Counted from the first letter of the stretch, positions 17,801-61,699 are shown. The stretch: DNA of 64,000 nt from a virus (IMGVR_UViG_3300025890_000021:1-64000); one strand, 5' to 3'. The notes: generated from the letters alone by a model not told the origin. Numbers and translations: made by a program.

Positions 17801-20800
17801 AAACTCACCACTACCACTTAAGAATATACCATTGGCACTTAATGATGGTGAAGAACCAAGTTTTATAGTTCCACCATTATCTGTAGATAAATCAAGTGTT
17901 GAAGTATCTATATTTAAATCTTGTGTTTTTAATTTGAAACCATCACTTGTTCGGTTTCGTATAAAATTATTTGAATCTACTTGAAAATTAAATTCACCAC
18001 TACCAGTTATGAAAATACCATTACTTACTAAATCATCTGGTATTGTAGTTCCAAGTGCTATCGAACCTGAATCTGACCTAATCTCAACTTGATTGTTTGG
18101 GTCAAGTAATCTATTTGGGTCTACTACCCAACCACCGATAGATGCAGAACGAAATGCTGCAAAACCTTGTGAATCAATACTTGAAGATGCGTTAGCGACA
18201 GTAGCTGGTGAACCACCAATTGTTGCAGGTGTTAAAATAGAGTTAGCAGATACTGAACCAAGTATCGTAACCCCATCTGTAATTGTACCACCCTCTAATA
18301 AGAAACTACTACCTGTTACATCTCCATTTTGTTTAACATTAAAATTTGATGTACTGATAAACATATATTCATCACTATCAATACCACCTTGTTTTGGTGA
18401 ACCACTAATGAATATTTGTTCACTACTAAATGAATGTGAATCCGTTGTGAATCCCCCAATCAAACCAGAAGATGCTGTAATACTACCCTCGAATGTTGCA
18501 CCACTTGCTATCAAGATACCATCTTTATTAACCATAAAGTTTGGACCCATCTTGATATAGAAATTATCAGGTGATTCTTCAAGTGGTGTGAAATCTATAT
18601 AGTACTCATCTGCTTGAGTTTCAAAACCAGATGATTGTGGGTCTGAACCAGGTCCTTGGTCTGTTTTAAATATCGTAGAATTATCAGCATTAAAGGTAAT
18701 GTTACTACCACTTATTTGTCCACCAATGATTGAGAAATCACCAATGTTACCAGCAGTAGCATTAATTGTACCTGCCATAGTTACATCACCAGCAGGTGTT
18801 AAGTGAAAGTTACTTGAACTAATTTCTATGTTACCATTACTACCACTTACAAATTGTGAATCACTACCCAATAAGAATGTATCCGTTACAACTTCAAAAA
18901 TACTTGGTTGAGTTCTGAACCTCATGTACCTATCAGTAGAACCACCTGCATCAACAATCTCTAATCCAACTCCACCATTATATTCAAATCCACTTGCTTC
19001 AGATGCTGATATTCTAGCGTTAATTGAACCACTATATATCATGAATCCACCGAGATTATTATCTATAGAATGTTGGAATCCTTTGTACCCAACACTTCTT
19101 AAATATGCTGGATTCACACCAAACATCTCCATAGACTCTCCGATTAACATCGAACCAGAAAATACTGCATCTAATCCATCTGCAATAACTGGTGTTGGTC
19201 CAACAAAAGGTACTTTCTCTTTTATTGAGAATGTTTCTGCAAGGTTATTATTTACATCATAAAACTCTACTAAGAAATCATAATTATCAGGTCGTTTTGG
19301 TAGAGGATATGGTAGTGGGATTATACATTCAAAGTAATCAGGATTAAAGTTTGTTTCACTATATGGTCGTAGAACTACATCACTTATGATTGCTCTACCT
19401 TTATTTAATTTAAACCTTACCTTTACTTTCGGGTCACCTAAAGTTGAACTAACAAATGTACTAAATACACTATCTATCCGTGCTTCGTTTACATTTTGAA
19501 AATCATCTATATTGATTTTACCAAGTGTTTGATATTCATCTACACTACCATTCTCTGTAAGTCCTAATGTAGAAACTTGAACTTCACATTCGAAGTTTGT
19601 TTCATCATTACCCTCTTTATCTTCTGCTAATTCTTTATAAAAATATGTATTAAATTGTATTGTGTATGGTACATTCGTTTCTAAATCAAAACTACCAGAT
19701 GTAGTAAATGTTAGATTAGAACCATCTGCATAATTAGAACCACTAATTTGTATACCATCTATTATTTGATTATCATCTCGTGTTATAATAGTATTTGAAC
19801 CACTTACCCAATGGTCTTGAAACACTTCCTTTTTATGAAAGTATCCAATGTTTACAAAACCAGTATCACTAAATGGGTCAACTAATAATTGTGGTGATTC
19901 AATTGGGCCTTCCCACATTGGTTCAAAATCACCAAGTGTACCCTCTGATTTTGCATATACTTTTGCTTTGAATACATCACCACTAAATGTTCTTAAGTTT
20001 GCTGTAGTAACTTTTGCAAAAGACCTAAAGTGTGTTTCAGATAAACTTGCGGTAGGTTGTGGTGTGTATGACATAGTAACTTCCATGTTACTTGTATCAG
20101 TACCACCTGGAAATATTGAGACGGGGAATTTTTCACCTGATAATTTATCAGTAATTAAGAAATCATCCTCTGGTACCATTGTAGTATTATTATTAACTTT
20201 CTTAATACTTGTTACATAGGATGTTGGTATATCAAATTTTTCAGTAGGATATTTTACATTATCTACTTTTGGATTTTTAATTGTTATGGATGAACCAACA
20301 AATGCACTTGATATTGAACCTGCATCATTTTCAGAACCACCCTCTACATCATTTACCTCTATAGTAAACCTATCTATTTCTGGTGATGCTCTTCTTACTA
20401 ACCTACCTCTTGAACGAAAACTCTGATTTTGAAAGGGATTTATTTTTGCTTTTTTACTATTCTTAAATTTTTCTATTTGTTGTCCAATTAAATCTATATC
20501 TTTTGCAGATATTGCTGGATAACCCTCATCGACAGGAACGATATCAGCAGGTGGTGGTGGTAAATTTGGTGCAGGATTAACTCCAACACTACCACTCAAT
20601 ATTATTGGTTCAATATCTCCTGATGGTATAATAAATGGTTTTACAATTTCACTAACCGAGACCGTAGGTTGTCTATAAAAGAATATCGGTTGTTCATTTG
20701 GTATGACAGGATTTATAAAAATTGGTCTTGAGTATCTTACATTATAAACATCTTGAAACTCACTCGGAACATCTTGATTGTTGAACTGATTTACTTGTTC

Positions 20801-37864: not shown

Positions 37865-40800
37865 TTAATCAACTTTTAACTTGGAATCGCCTGGTTCTTG
37901 AGTTACAAGTTTTGTAGGTGAAGTTATTGTTATTTCAACAGGTTCCTTACCATCAATAGTATTATTTTTCGTTAATAATTCTTGTTTGTAAAATAATCTA
38001 AATAGTTTAGATTCATATGCTACACTTTGAAATTCTGCTGGTGCAAATGATGAACTATATGATTCACCTCTTGATGCACTTGCCTCACTTGAATAAAAGA
38101 ATTCTTTTATTTCATTGTGTTCTGATATTCGTGATGCACTAACAAAAGGATTGAACGCCTCTTCAAATGTAGGTTCTATATCTCCCTCTGTTATACTTGC
38201 CGTTGCATATAAATTCCCATAATCACTTCTTGGGTCTATTTGATTAATTTTATTTAATGTAGGTATTCCTAATGTTCCAAGTGAACCACTTTCGAGATTG
38301 TGTAAATTTACATCTCCATTATATGTTGTGTACTCACCATGAAAACGATATGGTATAGGTTCTGCGGAACTACTTAATCTACTTGTTAATTGTATACCAT
38401 TATCAAAATGTCCTGCGTTCTCATAATATACATTATCAAACTCAGGTATCTTACCTACTACTTCTTTACTTCTTTCTAAAAGATTAGGTTCTATTAATAA
38501 ACCTAATGTTGTATTTGCTCTTGCTGGAGCTAATTTTAATAATTGGTCAAATATACTTCTATCAAAGAAGTTTATAATTCTCATGTAATCCCAAAAGTTA
38601 TTACTACGAGAATACTTTTTCCAATAATCTCTTTGTACTTTATCTAACCCACGATATCCTATTCTGTATTGGTCTCTTGGGTCTCCGATTTCATTATCAA
38701 GATTTATATCTGCTAATGAATACATAATATCTTCGTTCACCACATCAACTGGTGAAAAGAACACACCAAGTTTATTACTATCTATTGGTGCAAAACTTTG
38801 TGCAGAAACTTCTTGTCTAATATTAGAAGAAAGATTACCAAGTAGTTTCGTGTTCTCTGTTCTAATCTTTGTTGCGTTTCTTCTTGCTGGTCCAATATTT
38901 GGAACTTTCATTTGTTCTTTATCGGATATACTTCTAAATAAATTCTCACTATATCCAACCGCACTCGCACTTGCAAAGTAATTAGTTTGATATGATTTAT
39001 CATCTAACTGATAGTTTGTTCCACTACCTAAATTACTATTCTCACCCAATGGTAATCTGAATATTAAGTTATCATACATGGAAGATGTTGTGTTACCATT
39101 GTATGCTTTTGGTGCCATTACATGATTCTCAAATACACTTTGTGATAAAGGTTCACTCCATAATCTGAACTCCATCAAAGAACCACTAAGTCTTGTCTTG
39201 TGGAATTTATCATTATGTCCACCAACCCACAAGTTAGCACTTTGAGTAAATGCACCATTAATATCATTTGATGTTGTAGATAAACTTGATGAGTTAGAGT
39301 ATACAATTACTTCTCTTGATGCATCATATTGTCTTGCAGTTAACTCATATGTTACTTCTTGTGAAACATCATCCGATGTTAAATCTGCACCACTTGATGA
39401 TTTTCTTGTTAACATCACACTAAACATATCATCATTGTATACAGGTAGTAAAGAAGAAGTTACAAATGTATTTCCACTACTTCCACTAATACTAAACTGA
39501 ACTCTACCAAGATTATCAGTTGCTCCGTTATCAAGTAATTCTATTGCCCAATTATTTTCTGATTCAACAATAACTTGATTTTGTGATTTAGGACTTCTAA
39601 ATCTAAATTCAATTGTTTGTGGTTTTATATTACTAACACTATCGTTTGTCCATGGCGTTAGTAAATACTGACTTGACCTAAAATCTAATGCGTATGTAAA
39701 CTTCCTTTTTATTTCATAACTTACTCTATCATTTAAATCTGGTCCACCATATTCTCTAACTCTTAGTAATGAACTTGGTATACCATAACAATTCATCAAT
39801 CCTTTCATAGCACGGACAGTACCTTTGTTCTTCATAAAGAAAGGTAAGTTAGATAAAATTCTTTTCCATATTTCTTCTGTTAATGCTTCACTTGGTGTTT
39901 CATTTAATGCTGCACCACTTGAATCTTTTCCTAACAAGTATGTTGGTAGAATAACTAAATCATTTCCACTATTAACTTCAAAACCCATATTCTTTGCAAT
40001 TTCTTTTACAATATCCTTTGAGATACCCTCTGATACTTTAGGTACTCTTTCATTTACATCTGTGAAGTGTCTTAAGTAACTCCATATCTCATCAAATTGT
40101 TCACCCACCATATCCATAAAATCTAAGAACACTTCGTTTTGTGTATCTTGATTTACATGAGCAGGTAATTGATTTGTTAACCTATCCATGTTTGCTCTAT
40201 CATATTCTCTTGAGTAACCAATCCAAGTATTCCACCATGCGGTAACTTGAGAACTTGATGTATGATAAAGTGTGTGTGGTTCAGTAGAACTTTCTTTTGG
40301 CCAACTAGCATCATAGAACTCACCAAGTGAACTTGATGCATAACTTGATGAGACTGTATATAAAAAGTTTTCATATGGACCAAATGAGTTTATCACTTGT
40401 CTTTTCTTCAAATCAAAATCTGCTTGTGTTTCACCAGAACCTGTAACATTTGATATTGATAATGAAGATGAAGTATACTTCTCTACTAATTCTACTTTCT
40501 TTCTAAAATTTCTTAATCTTGTTTCTGCCGAACTAAAGTTAACAAAGTTACCAAATCCATAATCGGTTGTTTCACCATCTGCAGATAATTTTTCAGTTCG
40601 TTTTTGGTAATCAATATTTAATTGTACATCAAGTAAACTACTTGAGTGAACTGAGTTTATAATCTCTTCATTGGTTGAACTATCACTACTTAATAGGTCA
40701 TCATATTTTTTATAATTTGTACCTCTAAAGTTTATTGGATTTGAAGTAGAGTTTAAGTTAGGAACTCTAAGAAATAAATACTCATCATCTTCTTCAACAA

Positions 40801-42754
40801 ATGGTATTAGTTTTATTTTATCTTCATATGGTTCCATTTTCTCTTCAACAAAATAAGCCAAATCACCCACTTCTAATTCTTCAGGTAATGGTTTATAAAA
40901 TTTAAAGTAACGAGCAGTTTTATCAGAAAACGCATCCAATGGTACAACACCTGGGTCTGTTTGTAATACATCTTTTGGACTATCTAAAACACTAATTGCT
41001 AAGTGATATCCATGTTCAGTAACCATGTAGTTATTTAATCTTGAAACTTTGTTCTTTCTGTAGTTAACATAAAATTCATCAAAGAAGTTACCACTTACAT
41101 CATCACCACTATGTTCTGATTCTGTAGCACCCATTTCATATGATTTATCTACACGAACTCTATTGTTATCAAGTATCTCTACAATAGTAGCAACAAAATC
41201 AATTGGTGTATTTTCAAAAATTACTTCTGGTTCTTGTGCAGTATCTTCTTCATCTAATTCAGGTACAATATCTGTGATACCATCTTGTATTTGAACCCTT
41301 ACTATCTCATCAACTATTTCTCTTGTTACAGCTGGAACTTGTTCATTTATTACCCATTCATTTGTTGGTGCGATTGTACTTGGTGTTGAAGTTGCTGCTC
41401 CACCACCAGTTCCACTATCACCACCACCACCTTGTCCATCTTCAAAATCTTCTGCTAATCTTAACATATTGATACGATGGTTTCTCTGATGTAAGAAGTG
41501 TTCCATACTTCTCCATTTACCAAGTGTAGCACTAACTACATTATCAGCATATATAGTGTGGTGTTTATCTAATATTAAATTCCAAACATCTAATGGTGAT
41601 GATTTAAATTCTGTACCAACTTCATTTGCCATATACCACTTACCACGATGTTTAATCGGGTGATGGTCTGTTGTGATTAGTTTACCAATCCTAACTAACT
41701 TATCACCATAAGGTCTGTTATCTTTTACTACCTTTAATACTTTTGCAAAACCTTGTTCAGTTTTCACTTTCATACCAGGTCTCATCATCTTGATTGGTAA
41801 GGTACGATTGTTACTTAATTTTATTTGTGTATCACCTACAAAACAAACACTACCATAATCATCAAACCTATCTAAATCTTGATAACTATCATCTGGTGCA
41901 GGTACTTCTGCTATCTGTTCTATGACTGGTGTAGGTTTACCTTGTGTTGCACCTTTGATTGCTTTTCGTGCAACCTTTCTAACTATTTCTGAATCTAATC
42001 TTCTCTTAGGGCCTACATCATCCTCAACTATTTTTTCTACAATTTTTTCTCTTGTGATTGTGTAAGTGTACATACCAGGTATAACAATTTCTCCACCAAC
42101 CATGTTATCAGTAAATCCTCTTTCGTTTCTACCTGTAACGAATTGTAATACATATGGGTCTGTTTTATCAAACTTTATTTTACCAGCATTTGCTCTATTC
42201 TTTTTTGGTGTGTACACCATATCTTTGTTGATAGATGTAAAATCTTTTTGGTAAGGAACATTATTTATATTTTGTAAATCAACTTTTATCTCTCTTTTAT
42301 TAGGTGAGATTTGTTTGATTCTGTATTGTAATTTTTTAGGTAATAACTCTGTAGATTTACCCTCTGAAAGTTTTTGTTTACCAGATGTGAAATAACGAGT
42401 ACGACCATTGACAGTTTTTACTTGTGCTTTACCAATATGAATAAAACTATCTTCGTTAATTAAAACATCTTCTTGTTTTCCAGCCAATCTTCTTAAGAAA
42501 AGATATTTTACTTTATACTCACCAATTTCTAATCCCATTGAACGAAGATGTGTACCTACATCTAAATCAACTAAGTTTGGTGTTGGAAACTTTACTTCAC
42601 CTGCAGGAAATATATCATCATCGACATATTTGTCTTCCATATCATAAACATACAAATGTAAGTAATCAGAATTATCTCTACCAAATCCACTATATACGGG
42701 TCTTGGTGATTCTAATTCTTCTCTATCTTTATCCGTTAAACCATACTCTAACAT
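37865..42754 (-). CDS. 1629-aa baseplate-associated protein with an internal Hint (Vint-like) domain (about 41510-41845) and a LamG/ConA-like domain
   Basis: CFVGDTQIKL...ITTDHHPI...VWNLILDKHHTIYADNVVSATLG; later TIEFRF...LWVGG...GSLMEFRLW (LamG-like); baseplate context. Confidence 0.65.
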   Translation of the reverse strand: MLEYGLTDKDREELESPRPVYSGFGRDNSDYLHLYVYDMEDKYVDDDIFPAGEVKFPTPNLVDLDVGTHLRSMGLEIGEYKVKYLFLRRLAGKQEDVLINEDSFIHIGKAQVKTVNGRTRYFTSGKQKLSEGKSTELLPKKLQYRIKQISPNKREIKVDLQNINNVPYQKDFTSINKDMVYTPKKNRANAGKIKFDKTDPYVLQFVTGRNERGFTDNMVGGEIVIPGMYTYTITREKIVEKIVEDDVGPKRRLDSEIVRKVARKAIKGATQGKPTPVIEQIAEVPAPDDSYQDLDRFDDYGSVCFVGDTQIKLSNNRTLPIKMMRPGMKVKTEQGFAKVLKVVKDNRPYGDKLVRIGKLITTDHHPIKHRGKWYMANEVGTEFKSSPLDVWNLILDKHHTIYADNVVSATLGKWRSMEHFLHQRNHRINMLRLAEDFEDGQGGGGDSGTGGGAATSTPSTIAPTNEWVINEQVPAVTREIVDEIVRVQIQDGITDIVPELDEEDTAQEPEVIFENTPIDFVATIVEILDNNRVRVDKSYEMGATESEHSGDDVSGNFFDEFYVNYRKNKVSRLNNYMVTEHGYHLAISVLDSPKDVLQTDPGVVPLDAFSDKTARYFKFYKPLPEELEVGDLAYFVEEKMEPYEDKIKLIPFVEEDDEYLFLRVPNLNSTSNPINFRGTNYKKYDDLLSSDSSTNEEIINSVHSSSLLDVQLNIDYQKRTEKLSADGETTDYGFGNFVNFSSAETRLRNFRKKVELVEKYTSSSLSISNVTGSGETQADFDLKKRQVINSFGPYENFLYTVSSSYASSSLGEFYDASWPKESSTEPHTLYHTSSSQVTAWWNTWIGYSREYDRANMDRLTNQLPAHVNQDTQNEVFLDFMDMVGEQFDEIWSYLRHFTDVNERVPKVSEGISKDIVKEIAKNMGFEVNSGNDLVILPTYLLGKDSSGAALNETPSEALTEEIWKRILSNLPFFMKNKGTVRAMKGLMNCYGIPSSLLRVREYGGPDLNDRVSYEIKRKFTYALDFRSSQYLLTPWTNDSVSNIKPQTIEFRFRSPKSQNQVIVESENNWAIELLDNGATDNLGRVQFSISGSSGNTFVTSSLLPVYNDDMFSVMLTRKSSSGADLTSDDVSQEVTYELTARQYDASREVIVYSNSSSLSTTSNDINGAFTQSANLWVGGHNDKFHKTRLSGSLMEFRLWSEPLSQSVFENHVMAPKAYNGNTTSSMYDNLIFRLPLGENSNLGSGTNYQLDDKSYQTNYFASASAVGYSENLFRSISDKEQMKVPNIGPARRNATKIRTENTKLLGNLSSNIRQEVSAQSFAPIDSNKLGVFFSPVDVVNEDIMYSLADINLDNEIGDPRDQYRIGYRGLDKVQRDYWKKYSRSNNFWDYMRIINFFDRSIFDQLLKLAPARANTTLGLLIEPNLLERSKEVVGKIPEFDNVYYENAGHFDNGIQLTSRLSSSAEPIPYRFHGEYTTYNGDVNLHNLESGSLGTLGIPTLNKINQIDPRSDYGNLYATASITEGDIEPTFEEAFNPFVSASRISEHNEIKEFFYSSEASASRGESYSSSFAPAEFQSVAYESKLFRLFYKQELLTKNNTIDGKEPVEITITSPTKLVTQEPGDSKLKVD

Positions 42755-50000: not shown

Positions 50001-50032
50001 AATATGGGAGTCTTTTCCGAGGCTCCCATATT
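50001..50032. terminator. Probable bidirectional intrinsic terminator between convergent genes
   Basis: 13-bp stem aatatgggagtct / aggctcccatatt with a 6-nt loop. Confidence 0.7.
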
Positions 50033-50915
50033 ACTTTAAGATTTCCAAAGTTTTCTCAGCATTAAATCTTCCAGCTTTCGGCCAACCATTTATTGCACCA
50101 TCACTTTCACCTGGTGTTTTAATCCAAAGATATGCATCACAATATTCTGAATCTGTATCCGTAGTAGGTTTATTTCCTATCTTCATTTCTTGTGGATTAA
50201 ATGTTTCCCAAACTTCATTACCATTTCGTGATGTATCAATAACATAACTACAACCAAAGTGTTTAGCAATCTTATCACCATATCGTATACACTTATCTGT
50301 AGTTACGAAGTTACTTGTGTTGATACTAAACCCTTGAACCTTATTAGAATGAAACATACCCAAGTAAGTAATTGCATCAGTTCTCTTTAACCATTTAGGA
50401 TGTCCTATATCAAGATAAACTACTGCATTAGTTTTGGATAGTTTTTGTATTGTGGATTTTATGAGACGAGTTCGTTTTTGTCTTTGATAATAACTCATAC
50501 CCTTTCTCATATGTGGAAGTGCATCAGGTTCGATTATTACAATAGGTGAGTAATCACCAATACCCTCTACCACTTCATTAATAAAATCATGATATTGAGT
50601 TTGTGTTAATCCACCTTTTGAATGTCCACCTACATCCCTATCTGGTATAGAATATAAAACAATAACAGGTTGATAGGGATGTGCTCGTTTACACAATCTG
50701 TGTACTCTACTTGACAACCTCTTCAGTCGTTTGATAGGATTATCAACTAACCAAAAAGAATTAGGTTGTGAAGTTATCTGTTTTAACTGCGGATACTTTT
50801 CAGTATTATCTTTTCGGTAATCCCAGTCTTGGTGGTATAATTTTAACTGAACCACGAACCAGTGAACTTTGTCTCCACAGAACCTGATTGTAGGTAGTTC
50901 TTCTGTAGTTCCCAA
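50031..50915 (-). CDS. Glycoside hydrolase family 6 (cellulase-like); start may be the GTG at 50855
   Basis: LYSIPDRD.GGHS.GG, IIEPDAL, VYLDIGHPKWL, FSINTSNF, YVIDTSRNG, DAYLWIKTPGESDG. Confidence 0.88.
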   Translation of the reverse strand: MGTTEELPTIRFCGDKVHWFVVQLKLYHQDWDYRKDNTEKYPQLKQITSQPNSFWLVDNPIKRLKRLSSRVHRLCKRAHPYQPVIVLYSIPDRDVGGHSKGGLTQTQYHDFINEVVEGIGDYSPIVIIEPDALPHMRKGMSYYQRQKRTRLIKSTIQKLSKTNAVVYLDIGHPKWLKRTDAITYLGMFHSNKVQGFSINTSNFVTTDKCIRYGDKIAKHFGCSYVIDTSRNGNEVWETFNPQEMKIGNKPTTDTDSEYCDAYLWIKTPGESDGAINGWPKAGRFNAEKTLEILK

Positions 50916-51565
50916 TGATGTTTCTTCATCACATTGACAACACGAGTAATGTGTTGTGTGTTGGAACCAGTCATCTCACGAATTAAAATGTATAATGCCT
51001 TCTTGTTAAAGTTCTCAATATTTTCTCTCATATCAATCAATTCAACAACTGCGTTAGCAACATCCAAGTCTTTCTTTCGTTTAAAGACTGTAGTAAGATT
51101 GTTTCTCCAATAATCAGCAAGAAGAACAATGTATTCTGATTTCATTGACTTGGTGTCAATCCCTCTCATCTCTCCGACAGGGTCTCTCTTATAATCAGTA
51201 ACCTCTTCACCATCATGCTGCTTCATTCTCTTGTAGTTATTATTGTTATGTAGAATGAGATAATTCTTGGCAACAATCGAGAAATATGAGAAGGCCTTAC
51301 CCTTACCCTCGGCGAACTTATGAATGTTCATATACAAGAAACTAACCACCTCATGTTTAACATCGTCCGATGGAACATCAAAGTAGTAAAATTTAAAAGT
51401 GTGAATAATATTCTCAGCCAATTTTTCAAAAGGTGTACGAATATGTTCGTTATAGATTCTCTCCCTCATATGAGGTCGTTCTTCTTTATTATGACGAATG
51501 ATAGCATTCTCGGTATCTTGATTGAAATAATATCTTGGTGAACCTTTTTTTGCTTTTCTTGGCAT
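50843..51565 (-). CDS. Phage sigma-factor-like protein (gp55-like late sigma candidate)
   Basis: Region-2-like DDVKHEVVSFLYMNIHKF..GKGKAFSYFSIVAKN. Confidence 0.6.
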   Translation of the reverse strand: MPRKAKKGSPRYYFNQDTENAIIRHNKEERPHMRERIYNEHIRTPFEKLAENIIHTFKFYYFDVPSDDVKHEVVSFLYMNIHKFAEGKGKAFSYFSIVAKNYLILHNNNNYKRMKQHDGEEVTDYKRDPVGEMRGIDTKSMKSEYIVLLADYWRNNLTTVFKRKKDLDVANAVVELIDMRENIENFNKKALYILIREMTGSNTQHITRVVNVMKKHHWELQKNYLQSGSVETKFTGSWFS

Positions 51566-51816
51566 TATATCTCCTGCTCTGTTATTGTTGTTAATTCATT
51601 TACGGCATCTTGGATACCCTCAAAGACTACTCCTATCTCATCATCCGATTCGAACTTACCCTCTGAATCTAATTCATCAAGTATTCTTTTAGTTTGTATT
51701 ATTCTAGCGGAATAATTTTCAACCCAAGTTTCTAACCTCTCAACTTTTCTCATTTGATTGTAGGTAGTGAAACCTAATGTTACTGAAACTATTCCTAATA
51801 TTATTTCTACTATCAT
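51565..51816 (-). CDS. Small membrane-anchored protein
   Basis: N-terminal TM helix followed by a coiled coil. Confidence 0.55.
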   Translation of the reverse strand: MIVEIILGIVSVTLGFTTYNQMRKVERLETWVENYSARIIQTKRILDELDSEGKFESDDEIGVVFEGIQDAVNELTTITEQEI

Positions 51817-52589
51817 TTCTTATCTCCAAACAACTCATCAAATAAATCCTTTGGTGAATCACCTGTGAGTTTAGTTTCTACTTCAGTTTTAACAGCAGCT
51901 TTAATATTGTTAACTGATTTGGCAACTTTCTTTTTACCAACCTGTCCTGCTTGTTCCCATTGGTCACCCTCGATATATGTTGCCATCATATCTGCTTGGT
52001 GTAGTATACGAGCAATATGACCTCTCAAACCAGTCTCTGGTAAGAATGTCATTAAATACTTTTTGTTTGCTTCTTCATACATTCCATCTGTTAATTTCAA
52101 ACCCATGTATTCGTTTTCTGTCATAGGGATTTGAAAGTGTTGTAAAATAAATATTGCTCTATCTGTGACGGTCATGTAAGTTAATTCAGGATTATGATTG
52201 TAAATCTTTCCTTGATTCTTTCTGTGCCATTCCGATTCATTGATTACATAGTAATCATGTTCCATATCTCCAACCTTACCTAAATCATGGTGTAGGGCTG
52301 CAAAGATTAATTCTTCATTTGTGAAATTAATATCTGCTCCATTCTGTAACCATAAATCTCTTACTTGTTGAGACATCTCTACAATGTGAATGACATGTTC
52401 TACATAACCACCAACACAAGCATTGTGATAATGTTCTTTAGCACTTGCTGGTGCTAATACCATTCTATCTTCAAAATGGTCATACATTGTATTTAACTTC
52501 TCTAACCTTTCACCTGTAAATGTATCATTAATGATACTGCGTAGTTTTAAGTAGTTATCTTGTATCTGTTGTTCTGTTAGTTGCTTCAT
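51813..52589 (-). CDS. HD-domain phosphohydrolase
   Basis: HYH...GGYVEH, ALHHDLGK, ILHQADMMA. Confidence 0.85.
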   Translation of the reverse strand: MKQLTEQQIQDNYLKLRSIINDTFTGERLEKLNTMYDHFEDRMVLAPASAKEHYHNACVGGYVEHVIHIVEMSQQVRDLWLQNGADINFTNEELIFAALHHDLGKVGDMEHDYYVINESEWHRKNQGKIYNHNPELTYMTVTDRAIFILQHFQIPMTENEYMGLKLTDGMYEEANKKYLMTFLPETGLRGHIARILHQADMMATYIEGDQWEQAGQVGKKKVAKSVNNIKAAVKTEVETKLTGDSPKDLFDELFGDKK

Positions 52590-52621: not shown

Positions 52622-52660
52622 AATATAAGGCCAAATGACCATACGAGTCAAGTGTTTTTT
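52622..52660 (-). promoter_or_regulatory. Sigma70-type promoter (TTGACT-N18-TATATT) with A-rich UP element
   Basis: Flanks (AAAAAAACAC-TTGAC...GCCTTATATTA) are nearly identical to the promoter at 63489-63527. Confidence 0.7.
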
Positions 52661-53515
52661 TTATTTTTTTTCATTTATTGATTTTAAATACGAACCACCT
52701 ATATTCCAAAAGAGTGTCTTACCCTTTAGTGTTTCAATATTCTGTTCTAACCAATACCATTGTTTCTTGTCCCAAAACTCATTACAATCAAATGGTACTT
52801 CGTAATCATCCATCATATCATCAAACGCGTAAGGTGATTTCTCAAGTATAACATTTTTTAAATCACCTGCATGATTCTCATTTAAAATCTTTTTTGTTGA
52901 TGAGAAAGCACTCATCGTTATAGAGTAAACTTTTCTTGATTCAGAATCTAACTTCCACCAATCATCTCCATACTCTAAAAATTCTTTTATCAATCCACTT
53001 GCAGTAACTCCACTACCGATACTAACTACAAGGTTATCATATTCCCTACCTTTTAAAACTTCTCTCATTCTTGCCCCCATATAACTAATGTATGCGGGAT
53101 GATTGAATGCATATGGTAATTGTTGCCAACCATTCTCTTTTGCTTGTGTGTTCAATTTGTTCTGCATGAATGCCATCATGTTTGGTCTCATAGGATGTAA
53201 CTTACCACCATTACCCTCAACTCTTTCCAATAATATTTTTGGAAACCTTTCTGTATTAGGATACGCAGAAATAAATTCTATACCATACTCTTTACATAAT
53301 TGTGATAGTGTCCAACCTGTCCAACTCCCATAAACTGATAAGTGTGTTAACGGCTTTGATTTATCAATACTATCACTTTCTAATATTCTTCTGATACCCT
53401 CTATCTTTGACCATCGTGGAAATGTTACACCATCTCCAACTAAATCATCTCTCTTGACATCGACATCAATACCCTTAAGTGAATATGTTTCAATTGGTGT
53501 TTGTATTAAGTCCAT
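52661..53515 (-). CDS. PLP-dependent fold-type II enzyme (ACC deaminase / D-cysteine desulfhydrase-like)
   Basis: VKRDDL...SKIEG (candidate PLP Lys), VSIGSGVTASGL phosphate loop, LFWNIGG. Confidence 0.75.
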   Translation of the reverse strand: MDLIQTPIETYSLKGIDVDVKRDDLVGDGVTFPRWSKIEGIRRILESDSIDKSKPLTHLSVYGSWTGWTLSQLCKEYGIEFISAYPNTERFPKILLERVEGNGGKLHPMRPNMMAFMQNKLNTQAKENGWQQLPYAFNHPAYISYMGARMREVLKGREYDNLVVSIGSGVTASGLIKEFLEYGDDWWKLDSESRKVYSITMSAFSSTKKILNENHAGDLKNVILEKSPYAFDDMMDDYEVPFDCNEFWDKKQWYWLEQNIETLKGKTLFWNIGGSYLKSINEKK

Positions 53516-55011
53516 TTCCCAAATCCATTTTCAGTGCCAGATAAAGTATCTCTCATACCTTTATGTTTGAAACCAAATATTCTTTCAAAGTTATCACCGA
53601 TACAATGAAATAGTTTTTTTCTATTTCTAAAATTTAATTCTGTATCATTTAGAATTACATCTTCGATATACTCTTTGAAGTTTGTTCCTTTCTGAAATGC
53701 TCTTTTCTCTTGGTCACATACCTCGTCTGGTAAGTGTCCACGAAATGCTTCAGCAAGTGGTTTCTTCCATTGGTTTCCACTATTATCTAATACTGGTTGT
53801 GTAAGGTTAGTAGTGTAATCTAAAAAATCTAAATCGAAGAATGGACATCTTAATTCTATTGTTCCATAATTCATAAAGATATTATTTCCACGAAGTAAAT
53901 TACCATAGTATTGTTTCTCAAACAATTTCTTTCGTACATCACTCCAATCTGGTTTCTTACTGAACATTCTGAATGTACCATATGAACCATACGATTCATC
54001 AGAACCCTCACCACTAAACGCAACCTTAACACCATCCTCTGCCATTCTCTCGGCAACATAACTTTGTAGAATACCAACTTCCATTTGGACTGTTGATGGA
54101 TATTCTATAACCTTTATTGTTTCTAAAAATTTTCTTTTTAATTCTTCTGGGTCTCTTGGTATCTCAACCTCAACCAATGGTACATTGATATGCTCTGCAA
54201 CCATTCTTGCAAACATTAAATCTCTTGAATCCTCATCGAACTTGACTGTATAAGATACGATATCAGGTACTTTCTTACTTAACAAATAAGTAATAACACT
54301 TGAATCGATACCACCACTTAAACAAGTTCCAACCTTAACATCACTTAATAATCTTTTCTCTACTGCAGTATCTAACAACTCATAAGTTTTTTTATTAACC
54401 TCATCTTGGTCAAACTCTTTTTCTTCAAATGGTGTCCAAGTAAAATAGTAATCTTTATCAATATGTACTGAACCAGTTATAGTGTTTATTCTCACTACTG
54501 AATTTTTTGGAACAAACTTACATTCTGCTTGTGGTAATATTTTTAATATTGATTTCATTTCAGATGCAATTAAAATATTTGTATCATTGTTATAAATGTA
54601 TAATGGAATCTTACCAACCCAATCTCTTGATATAACTAACTCATTAGTTAATGAGTCATGTAATACAAAACTAAACATACCCTCTAATCTTTTTAGTTCA
54701 TTCTCTTTGTATAGATATAAAATTATTTCTGAATCACTATTACTAAAAAATGTATAACCTCGTTCTTCATATTCTTTTCTTAATTGTGGATAGTTCCATA
54801 TCTCACCATTAACTACAAGTGCATAATCATTCCAAATAAATGGCTGATTTCCTGCTTCACTTACATCATTTATACTTAATCTATTATGGCCCAGGTGTAC
54901 ATTACCACACTCAAAAATCTCTCGATTATCCCTACCTCTGTGTTCAATTTGAAGTAACATATCGTGTACAACTTCATCACTATGATTGACCGTACTAACT
55001 ATTCCACACAC
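53506..55011 (-). CDS. asnB: Glutamine-hydrolysing asparagine synthetase-family amidotransferase
   Basis: MCGI Ntn nucleophile, HRGRD, GHNRLSI, NGEIWN, LSGGIDSS, SGEGSDE. Confidence 0.9.
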   Translation of the reverse strand: MCGIVSTVNHSDEVVHDMLLQIEHRGRDNREIFECGNVHLGHNRLSINDVSEAGNQPFIWNDYALVVNGEIWNYPQLRKEYEERGYTFFSNSDSEIILYLYKENELKRLEGMFSFVLHDSLTNELVISRDWVGKIPLYIYNNDTNILIASEMKSILKILPQAECKFVPKNSVVRINTITGSVHIDKDYYFTWTPFEEKEFDQDEVNKKTYELLDTAVEKRLLSDVKVGTCLSGGIDSSVITYLLSKKVPDIVSYTVKFDEDSRDLMFARMVAEHINVPLVEVEIPRDPEELKRKFLETIKVIEYPSTVQMEVGILQSYVAERMAEDGVKVAFSGEGSDESYGSYGTFRMFSKKPDWSDVRKKLFEKQYYGNLLRGNNIFMNYGTIELRCPFFDLDFLDYTTNLTQPVLDNSGNQWKKPLAEAFRGHLPDEVCDQEKRAFQKGTNFKEYIEDVILNDTELNFRNRKKLFHCIGDNFERIFGFKHKGMRDTLSGTENGFGKWT

Positions 55012-55681
55012 GAAGTATCTCCTTTACATTTTTCTTTTCATTATTCATATCACCAAGATGAACTGAACCACCAATTGTTGTAACTCGTTTTAATTTTAAA
55101 TCTGCTTGTTCACATAAGAACTTACCCATCTCACATAACGCAACCCAATCAGCATAACCACTCTTACTAATTCTCATACTTCTAAAAAAAGCTGTAAGAT
55201 ATAATCCCTCTTTACGCGGTTTCAAATCAACCGATAACAAACATGGCATTCCTGCCATAGTCTTTCTACCATCGGATTTGGGGTCATATATGCTCATCGC
55301 TATGGTTTTACTATTCTTATGCTCTTTCAATCTTTTGATAGTTTGTTCCACTTGATTAAAACTATTATCCCAATTAATCATTCTGCCCCAATATGTTTTA
55401 TTCCATTTTACTGAAGTATCATTTTGTTGGTATTGTAACTCATCCATAAAAGGATGTGTTGTTGGTGGTACAAATGTAACCGATGATGCATAATCAATTC
55501 TATCATTACCAAATACATCTCTGAAGATACCATCAAACTTTGGGTCTGTATCAAAGTTATCTTCTATCTCTACACTCATATTAATAGATTCATTCATCAC
55601 ATCTTTATTACCATTCTCTAAAAGATACTCGTGTGATTTTATCCAAGCATCTGTTGGTGAGTTTGAATTAATTACTATCAT
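54995..55681 (-). CDS. Atypical thymidylate synthase / dCMP hydroxymethylase-superfamily enzyme
   Basis: YWGRM...NQVE, catalytic PC, L...FRS, GYAD, SVH. Confidence 0.7.
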   Translation of the reverse strand: MIVINSNSPTDAWIKSHEYLLENGNKDVMNESINMSVEIEDNFDTDPKFDGIFRDVFGNDRIDYASSVTFVPPTTHPFMDELQYQQNDTSVKWNKTYWGRMINWDNSFNQVEQTIKRLKEHKNSKTIAMSIYDPKSDGRKTMAGMPCLLSVDLKPRKEGLYLTAFFRSMRISKSGYADWVALCEMGKFLCEQADLKLKRVTTIGGSVHLGDMNNEKKNVKEILRVWNS

Positions 55682-57297
55682 GATTTGTAGTATACAAATA
55701 TAGGTTCAAATTTATAAACATTATTCTCATGTTGTACTGAGTTTAATATTCCTGTCTTACTTGGGTCTAACCCAATCATTCTTGTCATTAACATTTTTAG
55801 TTTACCTTTATATTCACAACCCAACTCTTCAAGTATCTTTCTACTATCACCCTCTAAATCATAATAAGTGTTAGCACCAATCTTAATAGAAGCGATATTC
55901 CAAAGTAGGTATCTATCATTTTTTAGATATTCATATGCTGTTGTGAGTGTTGGTCTAAGAAAGTTATCAACCCAGTCTTCATATTGACTATACGCTTTGA
56001 AAGATTGATTCTCATCTTGTGAGTATTGCTCTCTGTTAAAGTATGGTGGTGATGTGAAAACTAAATCTAACTTGCCCTTATACGCTTGAAAGTTAGAATT
56101 GTTCCCAATTAATTCACTACCCTCTCTATAAACATCATATGTATTACTTTGTTTTTCTACATCAAAGAACTGAGTAAATGTTTCAGAAAAATTATCTACA
56201 CAATTACTATTATAGAAATCAGCAACTGCTTCGTATCTACCGAAGTTATCTGGATTAGGGTCTGTACCAATATAATGTATCTTCTTACGAGAACTCATTG
56301 CTCCTAAGATTCTACCACCCCACCCACTACTTGGGTCATAGATATGAAACCTTTGGTCTTGATTATCTATATGGTCTGTAAATTTTTCGTACAATAGTTT
56401 TGCTGTAAGTGGTGGGAAGTTAACTGCTGGTTGTCCACATGCTAATCTAAACACTTGTAATATCTTTGGAAAGATACCAATAGTTTTATCATAGTGTCTG
56501 ATTAGATATAAGAACTCAGTTACTTTACCACTCTTACTTGTTTCACTTGAAACTATATCTGGTATGTTACTTAATTGTGTATCATTCAAGTAACCACTAT
56601 CTTTACAATCTTGTACTTCTTCTGCAGTTAAGTAAACATTTCCATGTCCTTTAAACTCTTCATTCATAGTACCATAATTACCGACTGTACTTTTCTTTAC
56701 TCTTGCAAGTACAAATCTTGTATCTGAATACTTACCAATAGAAACTTTACCATCATGTACATTCTTAATAAATTCTTTACCACTCTCACCATTCCAAAAA
56801 GGATTCTCATCTTTCTTGGTTACGATACTTCTACTCCAACTATACATAGAATCTTTCTTTACTGCTCTACGCATAATGTGAACAAACTTATCTTCTAACT
56901 CTGGGTCACCAAAGTGGTCATAGATAGATAAACCATTATCGGCTGATGCACCAATACTGATTTTTGTTTTTAACATTGTTGGGAAGAATTGATTTACACC
57001 AGATGCATCTTTATTGAAGTTCTTAATTATACCAAGTGATTCTTTATCACCAGTATTATCTTCGATTAAATAATCACATGGATTACCTTTTAACTTTTTA
57101 AATTTGGTAATCAACCCATCTTCATTTTTACCAATGACAGGTGGTGTACCATAAACATCCCATTGTTCAGTAACTTCTTTACGAAGTAATCGTGCCCATT
57201 CTGTGAATTCATCTGCACTCATTTGCAGAAGTTTGTGATATGTCGTATTTGATTTAAACTCAGAGAAACGACTTCTCTCATAAAACCATTTTTTCAA
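55678..57297 (-). CDS. Amino-group (m4C/m6A) DNA methyltransferase with a long N-terminal region
   Basis: Motif I YDPSSGWGGR, YIGTDPN, motif IV FTSPPYF. Confidence 0.8.
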   Translation of the reverse strand: MKKWFYERSRFSEFKSNTTYHKLLQMSADEFTEWARLLRKEVTEQWDVYGTPPVIGKNEDGLITKFKKLKGNPCDYLIEDNTGDKESLGIIKNFNKDASGVNQFFPTMLKTKISIGASADNGLSIYDHFGDPELEDKFVHIMRRAVKKDSMYSWSRSIVTKKDENPFWNGESGKEFIKNVHDGKVSIGKYSDTRFVLARVKKSTVGNYGTMNEEFKGHGNVYLTAEEVQDCKDSGYLNDTQLSNIPDIVSSETSKSGKVTEFLYLIRHYDKTIGIFPKILQVFRLACGQPAVNFPPLTAKLLYEKFTDHIDNQDQRFHIYDPSSGWGGRILGAMSSRKKIHYIGTDPNPDNFGRYEAVADFYNSNCVDNFSETFTQFFDVEKQSNTYDVYREGSELIGNNSNFQAYKGKLDLVFTSPPYFNREQYSQDENQSFKAYSQYEDWVDNFLRPTLTTAYEYLKNDRYLLWNIASIKIGANTYYDLEGDSRKILEELGCEYKGKLKMLMTRMIGLDPSKTGILNSVQHENNVYKFEPIFVYYKS

Positions 57298-57319: not shown

Positions 57320-57327
57320 AATAAATA
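57320..57327 (-). promoter_or_regulatory. TATTTATT motif upstream of the modification operon
   Basis: About 23 nt upstream of 57297. Confidence 0.45.
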
Positions 57328-59276: not shown

Positions 59277-59479
59277 TATATGACCTCTACGATTTTAGAT
59301 TCTTTAACTACTTTAACTTCAAATGAGTATGGTGAATCTTTTAACATCTCATTTACTTTTGCTTCAGCAACACTTACTGAATCACACTCAACTAAAAATG
59401 CTCTACGAGTTCTTTTTTCTCTCGTACCATTCTTTGTTGGTATCTCTTCTACGAATACTACTTGTGCTTCATAATACAT
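59276..59479 (-). CDS. DUF4494-like protein
   Basis: YEAQV...NG..K.T...LVE.DS...AE......FEV..VKESKIVEV. Confidence 0.65.
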   Translation of the reverse strand: MYYEAQVVFVEEIPTKNGTREKRTRRAFLVECDSVSVAEAKVNEMLKDSPYSFEVKVVKESKIVEVI

Positions 59480-60419
59480 TATGTATCTCCTTATATTTGT
59501 TAACGGCCAATTCTTTCATCTTTGCTTCGACCATAATATCAACCTCTTGACCATAGGTATCAATATAATCCAACACATAATCTGAATGTGCTTGTGGTCT
59601 AATTTTTGAATCTTCTTGTTCAATACTTCTTGATTCTGAATAGTGAACTGCTGGTTTAATATCACCCCATGTGGAACCTGCTAGTTCTAACGCTTCTTGT
59701 TCCGATAATCCACCATCACAAAATCTGTGGTGATGATAATCAAACACAATAGGTATACCAATTCGTTTGTATACTCCATCGTATAAATCTTGTACTGAGT
59801 ACATGGATGCCTTATCATCATTTTCGATTGTCAATCTTGTTTGTACACTCTCTGGTAACTTGTAAAAGTTCTTACAGAATCTATCCATTGCTGATTCTTT
59901 ATCTCCATATGCACCACCAAGATGAATGTTAATCTTGTTGTAAGGTGTTCTTGATAATCCCATCATATCCATAACATCACCATGTATTGTTAAGTCTTTT
60001 ACACAATTATCAACAACATGATTATGTGGTGATACTAATACATTGAATGGACCTGGATGTGTGGTCAACCTAACACCATGTGTTGTTGCCATTGTTCCAG
60101 CAGAATGTAACCATTGTTTAATCTCATCAATATCTTTTAGGTCATCCCATTCATACTCAGTTTTCCACGGCGTGATATCACTACTCATACGATAGAAATC
60201 ATAACCATTTAATACATTCCATTGTACTATCTGATTTAAATCTTTTACATTTTGTAGGATAAGTTCTGAAGCATAATCAACACCTTTATCATCAAAGGTT
60301 CTACGAATCATACTACGATTTGTTGTGATAGGTTTTGTACCTCTTGGTTTGTTACCATACTTAGTAGGATAGCTCAATGCCATATTGATACATGCATAAC
60401 CAATTTTGTTATTTACCAT
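59469..60419 (-). CDS. uvsE: UV DNA damage endonuclease (UVDE)
   Basis: GYACIN, RMSSD, HPGPF, IHLGG, LTIENDD, FDYHHH, HYSES, HSDY, MVEAKMKE. Confidence 0.93.
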   Translation of the reverse strand: MVNNKIGYACINMALSYPTKYGNKPRGTKPITTNRSMIRRTFDDKGVDYASELILQNVKDLNQIVQWNVLNGYDFYRMSSDITPWKTEYEWDDLKDIDEIKQWLHSAGTMATTHGVRLTTHPGPFNVLVSPHNHVVDNCVKDLTIHGDVMDMMGLSRTPYNKINIHLGGAYGDKESAMDRFCKNFYKLPESVQTRLTIENDDKASMYSVQDLYDGVYKRIGIPIVFDYHHHRFCDGGLSEQEALELAGSTWGDIKPAVHYSESRSIEQEDSKIRPQAHSDYVLDYIDTYGQEVDIMVEAKMKELAVNKYKEIHNVL

Positions 60420-60527: not shown

Positions 60528-60983
60528 CTAATAGCGTTCATTAGCAGGTGTATCATATTCAATTAATCCAGTCATTTCTGATGATGAACGAATTTTTTTA
60601 CCTAAGTTCTGAACGAACTCTATACCTAATTCACTACATACTTTTACCTCTGGTGAATTACTAGCATCTCTATCTCCACCATTACAAAAGATTAGTTTAT
60701 TCATAGGTTTAAATCTATGTACCATCCTAATAGTTTCACATACTGATTTAGTTTCATCACAAGCTAAGATTACTTCATCAACCATATCTAAATGATACAC
60801 GATTTCTAATCTATCATATTCTGCCATAAACTCATCACCCTTTTTCAACATACATTGTTCGTGATTGTTAACAATTACAATTAACTCATCTGCCATCTCT
60901 TTAGCTAATTTGAAATACTCAATATGACCTACATGAAGTGGGTCAAAGTATCCACTAACTATTGCTGTCTTTTTTCTCGACAT
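60528..60983 (-). CDS. Cytidylyltransferase-like nucleotidyltransferase (TagD/RfaE/RibL family); start reassigned to 60983
   Basis: SGYFDPLHVGH (HxGH), ELIVIVNN, FCNGGD. Confidence 0.85.
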   Translation of the reverse strand: MSRKKTAIVSGYFDPLHVGHIEYFKLAKEMADELIVIVNNHEQCMLKKGDEFMAEYDRLEIVYHLDMVDEVILACDETKSVCETIRMVHRFKPMNKLIFCNGGDRDASNSPEVKVCSELGIEFVQNLGKKIRSSSEMTGLIEYDTPANERY

Positions 60984-61113
60984 CTGTCTTACTCTCCTTG
61001 TGTTTCTTTCTAAATATTTTATCCCAATTATCAGAATACTTTTTGTAATCTGATGTTCTTGGTGCACTACCTTTTGTAGTACCTGAATCATATATTGATT
61101 TCTTCTTACTCAT
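60955..61113 (-). CDS. 52-aa basic protein (not in the ORF track)
   Basis: MSKKKSIYDSGTTKGSAPRTSDYKKYSDNWDKIFRKK...; overlaps the def stop codon. Confidence 0.5.
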   Translation of the reverse strand: MSKKKSIYDSGTTKGSAPRTSDYKKYSDNWDKIFRKKHKESKTDVEKKDSNS

Positions 61114-61699
61114 TATTGTTCATCTTCCAATCGTCATATAGTTCCCATCTATCTTCTGATAAAAACTTCTGAGCTTTCTTCCATTTCATCTCTGTAACAA
61201 CATGCCCGTTCTCAATTAATTTAACAATCTCGTTACGGCCAATCTTTTTTGTATCTCGTCTGTAACTTCCAATCTCAATCTTTCTGTCAAATATAGTAGT
61301 ACCATTTAAATGGTCAATCTCATGTTGTACACATATCGATTCAAGACCATCAAACCTCATAGTACCTTTTACATTATCTGATTTGACTTCTACGATTTCA
61401 TATCGTTTAGTGTTTACGCCTTTTTTTGGATAACTTAAACAACCCTCATAATAACTTATCTCATTTTCTTTTGAGATGATTTTTGGGTTAATGAGAACCA
61501 AAGGTTCAGTAACATTGACAACGGCAACTTGTGCATCAATTCCCACTTGATTAGCTGCCAACCCAATACCGTCCCCTCTTTTGTTAAGTATTTGAAATAG
61601 TTCTGTTGCAATAGAGTTTCCCTCTTCAACTGATACCTCTCTAAGTTTCTGATTAATTAAAGGATTTTCATCCTTAAGACAATTTATAACCTTACGCAA
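61106..61699 (-). CDS. def: Peptide deformylase
   Basis: GIGLAANQVG, EGCLS, QHEIDHLNG. Confidence 0.95.
   Translation of the reverse strand: MRKVINCLKDENPLINQKLREVSVEEGNSIATELFQILNKRGDGIGLAANQVGIDAQVAVVNVTEPLVLINPKIISKENEISYYEGCLSYPKKGVNTKRYEIVEVKSDNVKGTMRFDGLESICVQHEIDHLNGTTIFDRKIEIGSYRRDTKKIGRNEIVKLIENGHVVTEMKWKKAQKFLSEDRWELYDDWKMNNNE

Follow-up and report, generated by a model that had tools for sequence, protein, structure and literature searches.

A conserved four-gene phage cassette is a candidate pathway for hypermodification of cytosine at C5

The viral DNA stretch IMGVR_UViG_3300025890_000021:1-64000 (64,000 nucleotides, hereafter the window) carries at positions 52661-57297 four minus-strand open reading frames (ORFs) whose successive overlaps are 4, 17, and 10 nt. 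They encode an SPPY transferase (MT539) dependent on S-adenosylmethionine (SAM), a thymidylate synthase (TS)-fold enzyme (TS228), an AsnB-type amidotransferase (Asn501), and a pyridoxal phosphate (PLP) enzyme of fold type II (PLP284). From the sequences of these proteins and their relatives, we consider it likely that the cassette specifies an undescribed phage pathway for cytosine C5 hypermodification, and that the side chain it builds would end in a carboxamide and/or a primary amine. The folds, catalytic residues, homologies, and synteny, as well as the missing entry enzymes of known pathways, were observed directly, and the pathway as such is an interpretation of the homologies and the conserved gene order. 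A preliminary description of this DNA had reported the overlapping genes and assigned a domain to each; the ORF coordinates confirm the overlaps, and all four domain calls hold by Pfam, weakly so for the PALP model, where PLP284 is additionally backed by a match to phrog_7093 (9e-25). The same description had placed an amino-acid-derived or carboxamide substituent on a pyrimidine, through a combination of enzymes matching no described pathway. Homology and synteny support such a substituent, with the pyrimidine now narrowed to cytosine by an Asp in TS228 at the position of Asn177; we found no paper with the combination, and the entry enzymes are absent from complete relatives. Only the combination of parts is new, the parts themselves being homologous to pieces of described pathways.

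The preliminary description had looked to gene neighborhoods as a check on its proposal, and the genes do travel together. An IMG/VR scan with Asn501 as the query recovered 68 loci in which the TS-AsnB-PLP trio is syntenic. AsnB identity is 86-98% in a close clade and ~65% in a divergent clade on contigs of 170-289 kb, where TS is ~45% and PLP 45-68% identical; L056 and L057 make up a third, intermediate group. Across all 68, which represent two deeply separated phage clades, the order TS-AsnB-PLP is held at 35-65% identity, the lowest values being 35-45%, with overlapping reading frames. A TS228 homolog was present in every one of the 55 loci with room upstream and directly adjacent in 52, while the PLP gene was directly adjacent in 60 of the 63 loci with room downstream. 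Additionally, the trio is always accompanied by one to three SPPY-transferase paralogs with differing N-terminal domains, and an MT539-type gene occurs in 28/28 loci longer than 15 kb. This gene arrangement is far beyond chance. In the jumbo relatives of the divergent clade the trio forms part of the replication module, which runs DnaB, the small and large subunits of ribonucleotide reductase, thioredoxin, a 410-aa SPPY paralog, TS, AsnB, PLP, DNA polymerase B, a 243-aa protein of no assigned function, and the MT539 ortholog.

The cassette also occurs in variant forms. One radical SAM family (38-40% identity), B12-type-like and closest to the PhpK and BchE models, recurs in three cassette arrangements. 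L015, closely related to the window, has a 473-aa member (L015:2447-3868) inserted between AsnB and PLP with overlapping frames. A radical SAM gene 40% identical to that of L015 stands in place of PLP in L060 and L067, and in P0127/L079 radical SAM is fused to the C-terminus of the TS domain, the radical SAM half being 38% identical to L015’s. The L079 AsnB homolog lacks the glutaminase domain, and an intervening gene has a weak ATP-grasp match. These radical SAM variants show modularity typical of hypermodification clusters; combinatorial behavior was described by Lee et al. for thymidine hypermodification clusters. A radical SAM enzyme of the type found in phage M6 was ruled out, as the cassette family shows no similarity to M6 gp53. 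In L049, TS and AsnB read as one 710-aa ORF (L049:7347-9476) because ~90 nt are deleted; the end of TS and 14 residues from the start of AsnB are gone, the essential N-terminal Cys among them. This copy is probably defective or the product of misassembly, and we gave the apparent fusion no weight as Rosetta-stone evidence.

Two further observations concern genes near variant cassettes. In L061, a complete 289-kb relative, the gene directly upstream of TS (L061:6066-7238) has a 390-aa product that contains a P-loop and weakly matches GNAT acetyltransferases. This architecture recalls that of cytidine N4-acetyltransferases, but the scores stay under the Pfam cut-offs and other loci do not conserve the gene. 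In L060 (L060:604-2496), genes for a group 1 glycosyltransferase-like protein (a weak match) and a dTDP-4-dehydrorhamnose 3,5-epimerase lie ~3 kb upstream of the radical SAM cassette and may hint at added glycosylation.

TS228 belongs to the TS superfamily (PF00303, Thymidylat_synt, 30.3 bits against a cut-off of 24.3). Pro146-Cys147, Arg167-Ser168, Ser-Lys-x-Gly-Tyr-Ala-Asp178, and His208 are invariant across 13 family members, Cys147 being the catalytic residue. Profile alignment to solved TS structures allowed us to place TS228 positions in the numbering of E. coli ThyA. Asp178 occupies the position of ThyA Asn177, where a change from Asn to Asp is the switch from dUMP to dCMP specificity (PMC13326640, PMC8670742). 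TS228 therefore reads as cytidylate-specific, and its predicted substrate points to cytosine. The position of the folate-contacting Asp169 is filled by Arg170; Arg is found here in the window and the jumbo clades, and Ala in L060, L067, P0122, P0126, and P0127. Change of Asp169 to Asn is diagnostic of flavin-dependent 5-hydroxy-dCMP synthases (PMC13326640), a class represented by AfhB and RB69 gp48, and TS228 lacks it. As aligned, Arg or Ala at this position is the signature of no characterized TS branch. At the position of ThyA Leu143, a residue that correlates with a methyl and not a hydroxymethyl product (PMC13326640, PMC8670742), the TS228 family has a small residue (Gly or Ser).

The AlphaFold (AF2) model of TS228, with a predicted local distance difference test score (pLDDT) of 92.9, found its best VIA match in the dCMP hydroxylase AfhB of phage HY126 (9iqu; Z 20.4, root-mean-square deviation 2.7, 198 aligned residues). 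Further matches, all in the range Z 17-20, were 9iqc (Z 20.0), MilA (Z 19.6), and canonical synthases (~Z 17.5); 9iqu and 9iqc are identified as AfhB by their PDB titles and by the Asn that 9iqu, as aligned, has in place of Asp169. The likeness to T4-type hydroxymethylase suggested in the preliminary description gives way here, TS228 being nearer to AfhB and MilA and having lost Asp169.

Neither is TS228 a bona fide ThyA, as it scores 75.6 bits against the TIGR03283 cut-off of 174.55 and both Asn177 and Asp169 are changed. We searched five genomes of relatives (G001-G005), four of them 95-100% complete and one a partial genome close to the window. Canonical ThyA (>300 bits) is encoded alongside in the three complete jumbo relatives G001-G003 (221-289 kb), so TS228 is not the housekeeping enzyme in these phages. 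ThyX was found in none of the five, and G004 and G005 also have no other TS gene. In L071, the one of the three jumbo relatives whose ThyA segment extends to the motif, Asp169 and Asn177 are intact. The TS228 family is compact: its profile, searched against 1.84 billion cluster representatives, recovered ~13 full-length clusters (50% identity) at E < 1e-60, followed by a gap to ~1e-26. The TS228 protein had no tblastn match among 50,697 phage records, and a fusion search found no longer proteins containing it.

Asn501 starts at a GTG codon that gives the N-terminal Met-Cys (Met-Cys-Gly-Ile) needed by an N-terminal nucleophile glutaminase. The hallmarks of its family are all in place, namely the N-terminal Cys nucleophile, the PP-loop SGGIDSS, and the SGEGSDE motif, with every glutaminase and PP-loop residue intact, and Pfam detects both Asn_synthase (1.9e-43) and GATase_7 (1.3e-33). 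Among isolated phages, its best match is gp124 of Streptomyces phage TurkishDelight (226 bits, 31% identity, full length), a score above the 162 bits that it reaches with E. coli AsnB. Alignment to the E. coli enzyme shows that Thr322, Thr323, and Arg325 are replaced by Val, Gln, and Glu in Asn501, the Glu being common to gp124. Boehlein and colleagues reportedly found in 1997 that these three AsnB residues are needed for formation of beta-aspartyl-AMP. The replacements at the aspartate site therefore suggest that Asn501, while in the AsnB family, is probably not an asparagine synthetase.

In TurkishDelight, gp124 has a gene of the C5-cytosine-methylase fold on one side and a small CmoA-like class I methyltransferase gene on the other, with ParB-like genes upstream. 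Cassettes of this type were studied by Yang et al., who demonstrated that CmoY, an AsnB homolog, joins glycine to 5-carboxymethylcytosine in DNA, and who predict an amide product for a glutaminase-bearing CmoY-like cluster that is itself uncharacterized (PMC12783734). In keeping with a CmoY-type enzyme, Asn501 is nearer to a phage AsnB homolog from such a cassette than to the cellular enzyme, and neither CmoA nor a CmoX of the C5-methyltransferase fold was found alongside it in G001-G005 (TIGR00740, PF00145).

PLP284 matches the PALP model at 16.5 bits, below the cut-off of 35. Of greater use were 66 matching phage records, M6/YuA-like Pseudomonas phages foremost, and a BLASTP alignment to M6 gp52 that runs end to end (residues 1-273, E 6e-29, 29% identity). 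The predicted Schiff-base lysine, Lys37, aligns with the proposed Lys36 of gp52 and is invariant in 12 sequences, and the two proteins have in common an invariant glycine-rich phosphate loop and C-terminal Pro-Phe-x-Cys-Asn...Trp-x-Trp-Leu motif. M6 gp52 and its ViI counterpart gp226 are yellow when purified and depend on PLP to decarboxylate amino acids already joined to thymine in DNA, and the substrate of M6 gp52 is C-alpha-glycinylthymidine (PMC8989533). By full-length homology and the conserved lysine, PLP284 falls in the gp52 family, and with a decarboxylase as its nearest characterized relative it is itself a predicted decarboxylase, which departs from the beta-elimination or replacement proposed for it at first. 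The two partners of gp52, a 5-hydroxymethyluracil (5-hmU) DNA kinase and an amino acid:DNA transferase, do not accompany it in G001-G005.

The remaining member, MT539, starts at a TTG codon with GGAG 6 nt upstream, and its ortholog in L011 opens at the same residue with ATG. Its C-terminal class I methyltransferase domain (~aa 290-539) bears motif I (DPSSGWGG) and motif IV (SPPY), and across 24 orthologs and paralogs Asp321-x-Ser-x-Gly-Trp-Gly and Ser416-Pro-Pro-Tyr-Phe are invariant. Its match to PF01555 (N6_N4_Mtase) is marginal, at 27.9 bits against a cut-off of 26.7; motif I, motif IV, and the class I Rossmann fold place it among the amino-directed (N6/N4) SAM methyltransferases. The top VIA matches of its AF2 model (pLDDT 81) are the exocyclic-amine tRNA m2G methyltransferases aTrm11/TrmN/Trm14 (Z 15-16), and its nearest viral matches are annotated as N4-cytosine DNA methyltransferases. 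The N-terminal 290 aa, a domain that was not folded alone, had no informative Foldseek match in the PDB, VIA wide, BFVD, or the protein atlas. MT539 is unusually conserved, with orthologs 67-92% identical in most loci and ~73% identical between clades, and only the methyltransferase domain is shared with the 410-aa SPPY paralogs. Near-identical copies occur on contigs of up to 205 kb, and a search with MT539 returned >2,000 relatives, Tara Oceans records among them.

Set against these homologies is the absence of the enzymes that begin the published pathways. In G001-G005 we found no amino acid:DNA transferase (PF18724, in a search validated on phage M6), no 5-hmU DNA kinase (PF18748), no CmoA (TIGR00740), and no C5 methyltransferase (PF00145), and therefore no published route of side-chain attachment can operate in these phages. 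Full-text literature searches returned no paper that joins a TS homolog, an AsnB amidotransferase, and a gp52-type PLP enzyme. The cassette thus joins relatives of three separately discovered DNA-decorating enzymes while every known entry enzyme is missing, and this combination therefore suggests a new route for linking a side chain to cytosine, and with it a TS-superfamily branch that is still unassigned.

We propose that the four genes are one form of a modular phage pathway that would replace or decorate cytosine in the viral DNA by the following series of steps. TS228 would bind dCMP via Asp178, Cys147 would add to C6, and the activated C5 would take a handle. With Arg or Ala in place of the Asp169 that contacts folate, ordinary methylene-tetrahydrofolate is an improbable cofactor. 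The modified nucleotide would then enter DNA through kinases of the host or the phage and through the phage polymerase, and a carboxyl-bearing, amino-acid-like side chain would be completed on the handle. As donor for this completion one might guess at a SAM alkyl group (methyl or 3-amino-3-carboxypropyl) moved by the SPPY transferase, a suggestion that we regard as doubtful. Asn501 would adenylate the side-chain carboxylate and amidate it with glutamine-derived ammonia, PLP284 would bind the free alpha-amine and decarboxylate or otherwise trim the amino-acid part, and MT539 would N-methylate N4 or a side-chain nitrogen. The modified cytosine would probably hide the viral DNA from host nucleases. 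A more specific version, which we put forward only tentatively, is that TS228 is a cytidylate C5 enzyme that installs a carboxyl-bearing or other new handle without folate, and that the coupled AsnB enzyme traps this handle as an amide. Were this so, the genomes of these abundant aquatic phages would contain a type of cytosine derivative not known from any DNA, and none of the known entry enzymes would take part in its synthesis.

Several points weigh against a cytosine hypermodification pathway as we have drawn it. Asn501 scores over the NCBIfam TIGR01536 asparagine-synthase cut-off (293.2 against 267.1 bits). TS228 has lost one arginine of the phosphate-binding pair, ThyA Arg126-Arg127 being Lys-Thr in this clade, as well as the Tyr contact to the sugar 3′-OH, so the form of the substrate is uncertain. 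No source of the carboxylate or amino acid was found in G001-G005, so the pathway cannot be written out, and if the side chain has only one carboxylate the amidotransferase and the decarboxylase would compete for it. The PLP gene is dispensable in some cassette variants. The methyltransferase, which the preliminary description had counted as part of the unit, is bound to the trio less tightly than that description took it to be, since in the divergent clade the MT539 ortholog lies 4-8 kb from the trio and is not contiguous with it. Because of this distance, MT539 may be an ordinary DNA methyltransferase outside the pathway. Finally, the phage is uncultured.

Of the alternatives that we weighed, the one that survives best, though we hold it to be unlikely, keeps cytosine hypermodification as the purpose and makes TS228 an AfhB-like flavin 5-hydroxylase that produces 5-hydroxy-dCMP. 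The SPPY transferase would then alkylate the base in DNA from a SAM-type donor, and Asn501 would amidate or PLP284 decarboxylate the result. The models for this scheme are tRNA cmo5U, microcin C, and diphthamide chemistry, the donated group being 3-amino-3-carboxypropyl or the carboxymethyl of host carboxy-SAM, and the product of PLP284 an aminopropyl group. Such chemistry has precedent, as MccD and MccE carry out aminocarboxypropyl transfer followed by PLP decarboxylation, and Dph6 uses ATP to amidate an aminocarboxypropyl group. In favor of the scheme, no structure matches TS228 better than AfhB, which is equally compact at ~230 aa, the folate-contacting Asp169 is lost, and SPPY-transferase paralogs never fail to accompany the trio. 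However, the Arg or Ala that replaces Asp169 is not the Asn of all tested 5-hydroxy-dCMP synthases, the SPPY motifs indicate an exocyclic nitrogen and not an oxygen, with plain N-methyltransferases as the best matches, and CmoA was not found in G001-G005. Nothing that we found distinguishes transfer of a methyl from transfer of a larger alkyl group.

Less probable still is that the product is a free modified cytidine nucleotide or nucleoside, serving as an inhibitor, signal, or decoy against host defense, or else a modified RNA, along the lines of the MilA-initiated mildiomycin pathway and blasticidin-type pathways. MilA is a near-top structural match to TS228, whose sugar and phosphate contacts are altered, and sets of PLP, radical SAM, ATP-grasp, and methyltransferase enzymes occur in peptidyl-nucleoside clusters too. 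Yet genes for DNA polymerase, ribonucleotide reductase, and helicase adjoin the cassette in relatives, the closest characterized relatives of two of its members act on DNA, and no hydrolase, glycosyltransferase, or export function is conserved alongside it.

Quite improbable is the proposal that these are merely neighboring auxiliary metabolic genes (a thymidylate or deoxycytidylate methylase supplying precursors, an asparagine synthetase, an enzyme akin to serine/threonine dehydratases, and an anti-restriction DNA methyltransferase with no link to the others): it can point to the Asn501 score above the AsnB cut-off with glutaminase and PP-loop residues intact, to G004 and G005 having no other TS or ThyX gene, and to the nucleotide-metabolism genes around the cassette in relatives, but it has to contend with the gene order fixed over 68 diverged loci with overlapping frames, the Asp at the Asn177 position that speaks against dUMP as substrate, the canonical ThyA coexisting in G001-G003, the loss of AsnB Thr322/Thr323/Arg325, the place of PLP284 in the gp52 family and not among the dehydratases (as its PALP score below the cut-off also indicates), and radical SAM, ATP-grasp, and TS::radical-SAM variants that would be senseless for housekeeping metabolism.

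The window itself is AT-rich (~33% GC) with almost every gene on the minus strand, and the phage is myovirus-like, encoding a baseplate wedge protein and an SbcC-like nuclease. A nucleotide search of the region against 50,697 phage records gave no match. The cassette and the features around it are listed in Table 1.

Table 1. Coordinates of the cassette genes and of other features in the window
Feature	Position	Strand	Description
MT539	55678-57297	(-)	539 aa, SPPY SAM-dependent transferase; PF01555
TS228	54995-55681	(-)	228 aa, compact thymidylate-synthase-fold enzyme; PF00303
Asn501	53506-55011	(-)	501 aa, glutamine-dependent AsnB-type amidotransferase; Pfam and NCBIfam
PLP284	52661-53515	(-)	284 aa, fold-type II PLP enzyme, M6 gp52 / ViI gp226 family; phrog_7093
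Sigma-70-like promoter match	52622-52651	(-)	TTGACT-18-TATATT; consensus match only
HD258	51813-52589	(-)	HD-domain phosphohydrolase; phrog_28876 at 1.2e-12
TATTTATT	57320-57327	(-)	Upstream of the four-gene unit
UvdE	59469-60419	(-)	UV-damage endonuclease (4e-60), upstream of the cassette
Cytidylyltransferase-like protein	60528-61091	(-)	1e-12, upstream of the cassette
Peptide deformylase	61106-61699	(-)	1e-30, upstream of the cassette
240-aa protein	50843-51565	(-)	No family match
GH6 protein	50031-50915	(-)	Glycoside hydrolase family 6 (cellulase-type) domain, Pfam E 1.5e-45
Giant ORF	8819-21247	(-)	4142 aa
Giant ORF	3664-8835	(-)	1723 aa
Giant ORF	37865-42754	(-)	1629 aa, no PHROG match

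The four-gene unit is flanked by gaps of 35 nt before it and 71 nt after it, the latter followed by the HD gene. It had at first been described as bounded by a TATTTATT site upstream and a new promoter downstream. The TATTTATT sequence and a good sigma-70-like match are indeed there, and neither motif is commoner in the window than expected: TATTTATT was found 15 times against 14.3 expected from shuffled sequence, and sigma-70-like matches 37 times against 43, that is, without excess. We dropped TATTTATT as a promoter motif for this lack of enrichment, and the promoter match in the 71-nt gap likely marks the 3′ boundary of the unit. HD258 is a possible accessory nucleotide hydrolase, tied to the cassette by synteny only in the window’s own clade and L040. 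It shows no similarity to the HD hydrolase that adjoins the M6 TS homolog and has no PDB relative by sequence. G001 and G005 have a MazG-like gene close to the cassette that the window lacks; L007, a close relative, carries a MazG-like gene where the window has the cytidylyltransferase-like one. Elsewhere in the window, the GH6 gene belongs to a family unusual for a phage and is kept in the close clade at 59-98% identity. The gene for the neighboring 240-aa protein extends 73 nt beyond the annotated TTG start of GH6 and is conserved at 81-100% in the same clade.

Hypermodifications of phage DNA defeat restriction enzymes and CRISPR nucleases, and they have been a source of enzymes for epigenetic sequencing and DNA labelling. 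The cassette described here is common in environmental viromes, with the TS228 family proper confined to only ~13 clusters at 50% identity. Being a small set of three or four genes, it is directly testable by expression, without recourse to the uncultured phage.

The candidate cytosine pathway can be compared with several known systems. Thymidine hypermodification in M6 and ViI proceeds through a dUMP hydroxymethylase, a 5-hmU DNA kinase, an amino acid:DNA transferase, a radical SAM isomerase, and the PLP decarboxylase gp52/gp226 (PMC8989533). The cassette resembles this system in its gp52-type PLP homolog, its TS-fold starter enzyme, the radical SAM partner of some variants, and its modular, combinatorial character. 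It differs in the predicted base, cytosine where M6 and ViI modify uracil, in the added AsnB amidotransferase, in the absence of the DNA kinase and the amino acid:DNA transferase from complete relatives, and in a radical SAM enzyme (B12-type/PhpK-BchE-like) that is unrelated to gp53.

With the CmoA/CmoX/CmoY system of Synechococcus phage S-B43 and the glutaminase-bearing CmoY-like cluster (PMC12783734), the cassette shares an AsnB-family enzyme and the predicted conversion of a carboxylate to an amide on a C5-modified cytosine. A similar likeness extends to TurkishDelight gp123-gp125, as Asn501 is nearer to gp124 than to E. coli AsnB and the two have altered acceptor-site residues in common. 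In contrast to the CmoA/CmoX/CmoY system, the cassette has no CmoA, no CmoX of the C5-methyltransferase fold, and no ParB partner, and a TS-fold enzyme and an SPPY transferase are found instead.

Among TS-fold enzymes, the flavin-dependent 5-hydroxy-dCMP synthases (HY126 AfhB 9iqu/9iqc, RB69 gp48, and DLP3 gp80; PMC13326640) share with TS228 the compact fold of ~230 aa, the catalytic Cys, and the Asp at the Asn177 position. TS228 is set apart from them by an identity of only ~20%, by the lack of linked glycosyltransferases, and by having neither the change of Asp169 to Asn (Arg or Ala instead) nor that of Leu143 to Glu (Gly or Ser instead). The dCMP hydroxymethylase T4 gp42 and the CMP hydroxymethylase MilA differ from TS228 in being larger and in keeping the folate-contacting Asp169, but they too are cytidylate-directed TS-fold enzymes that put a C5 handle in place before polymerization, the role that we predict for TS228.

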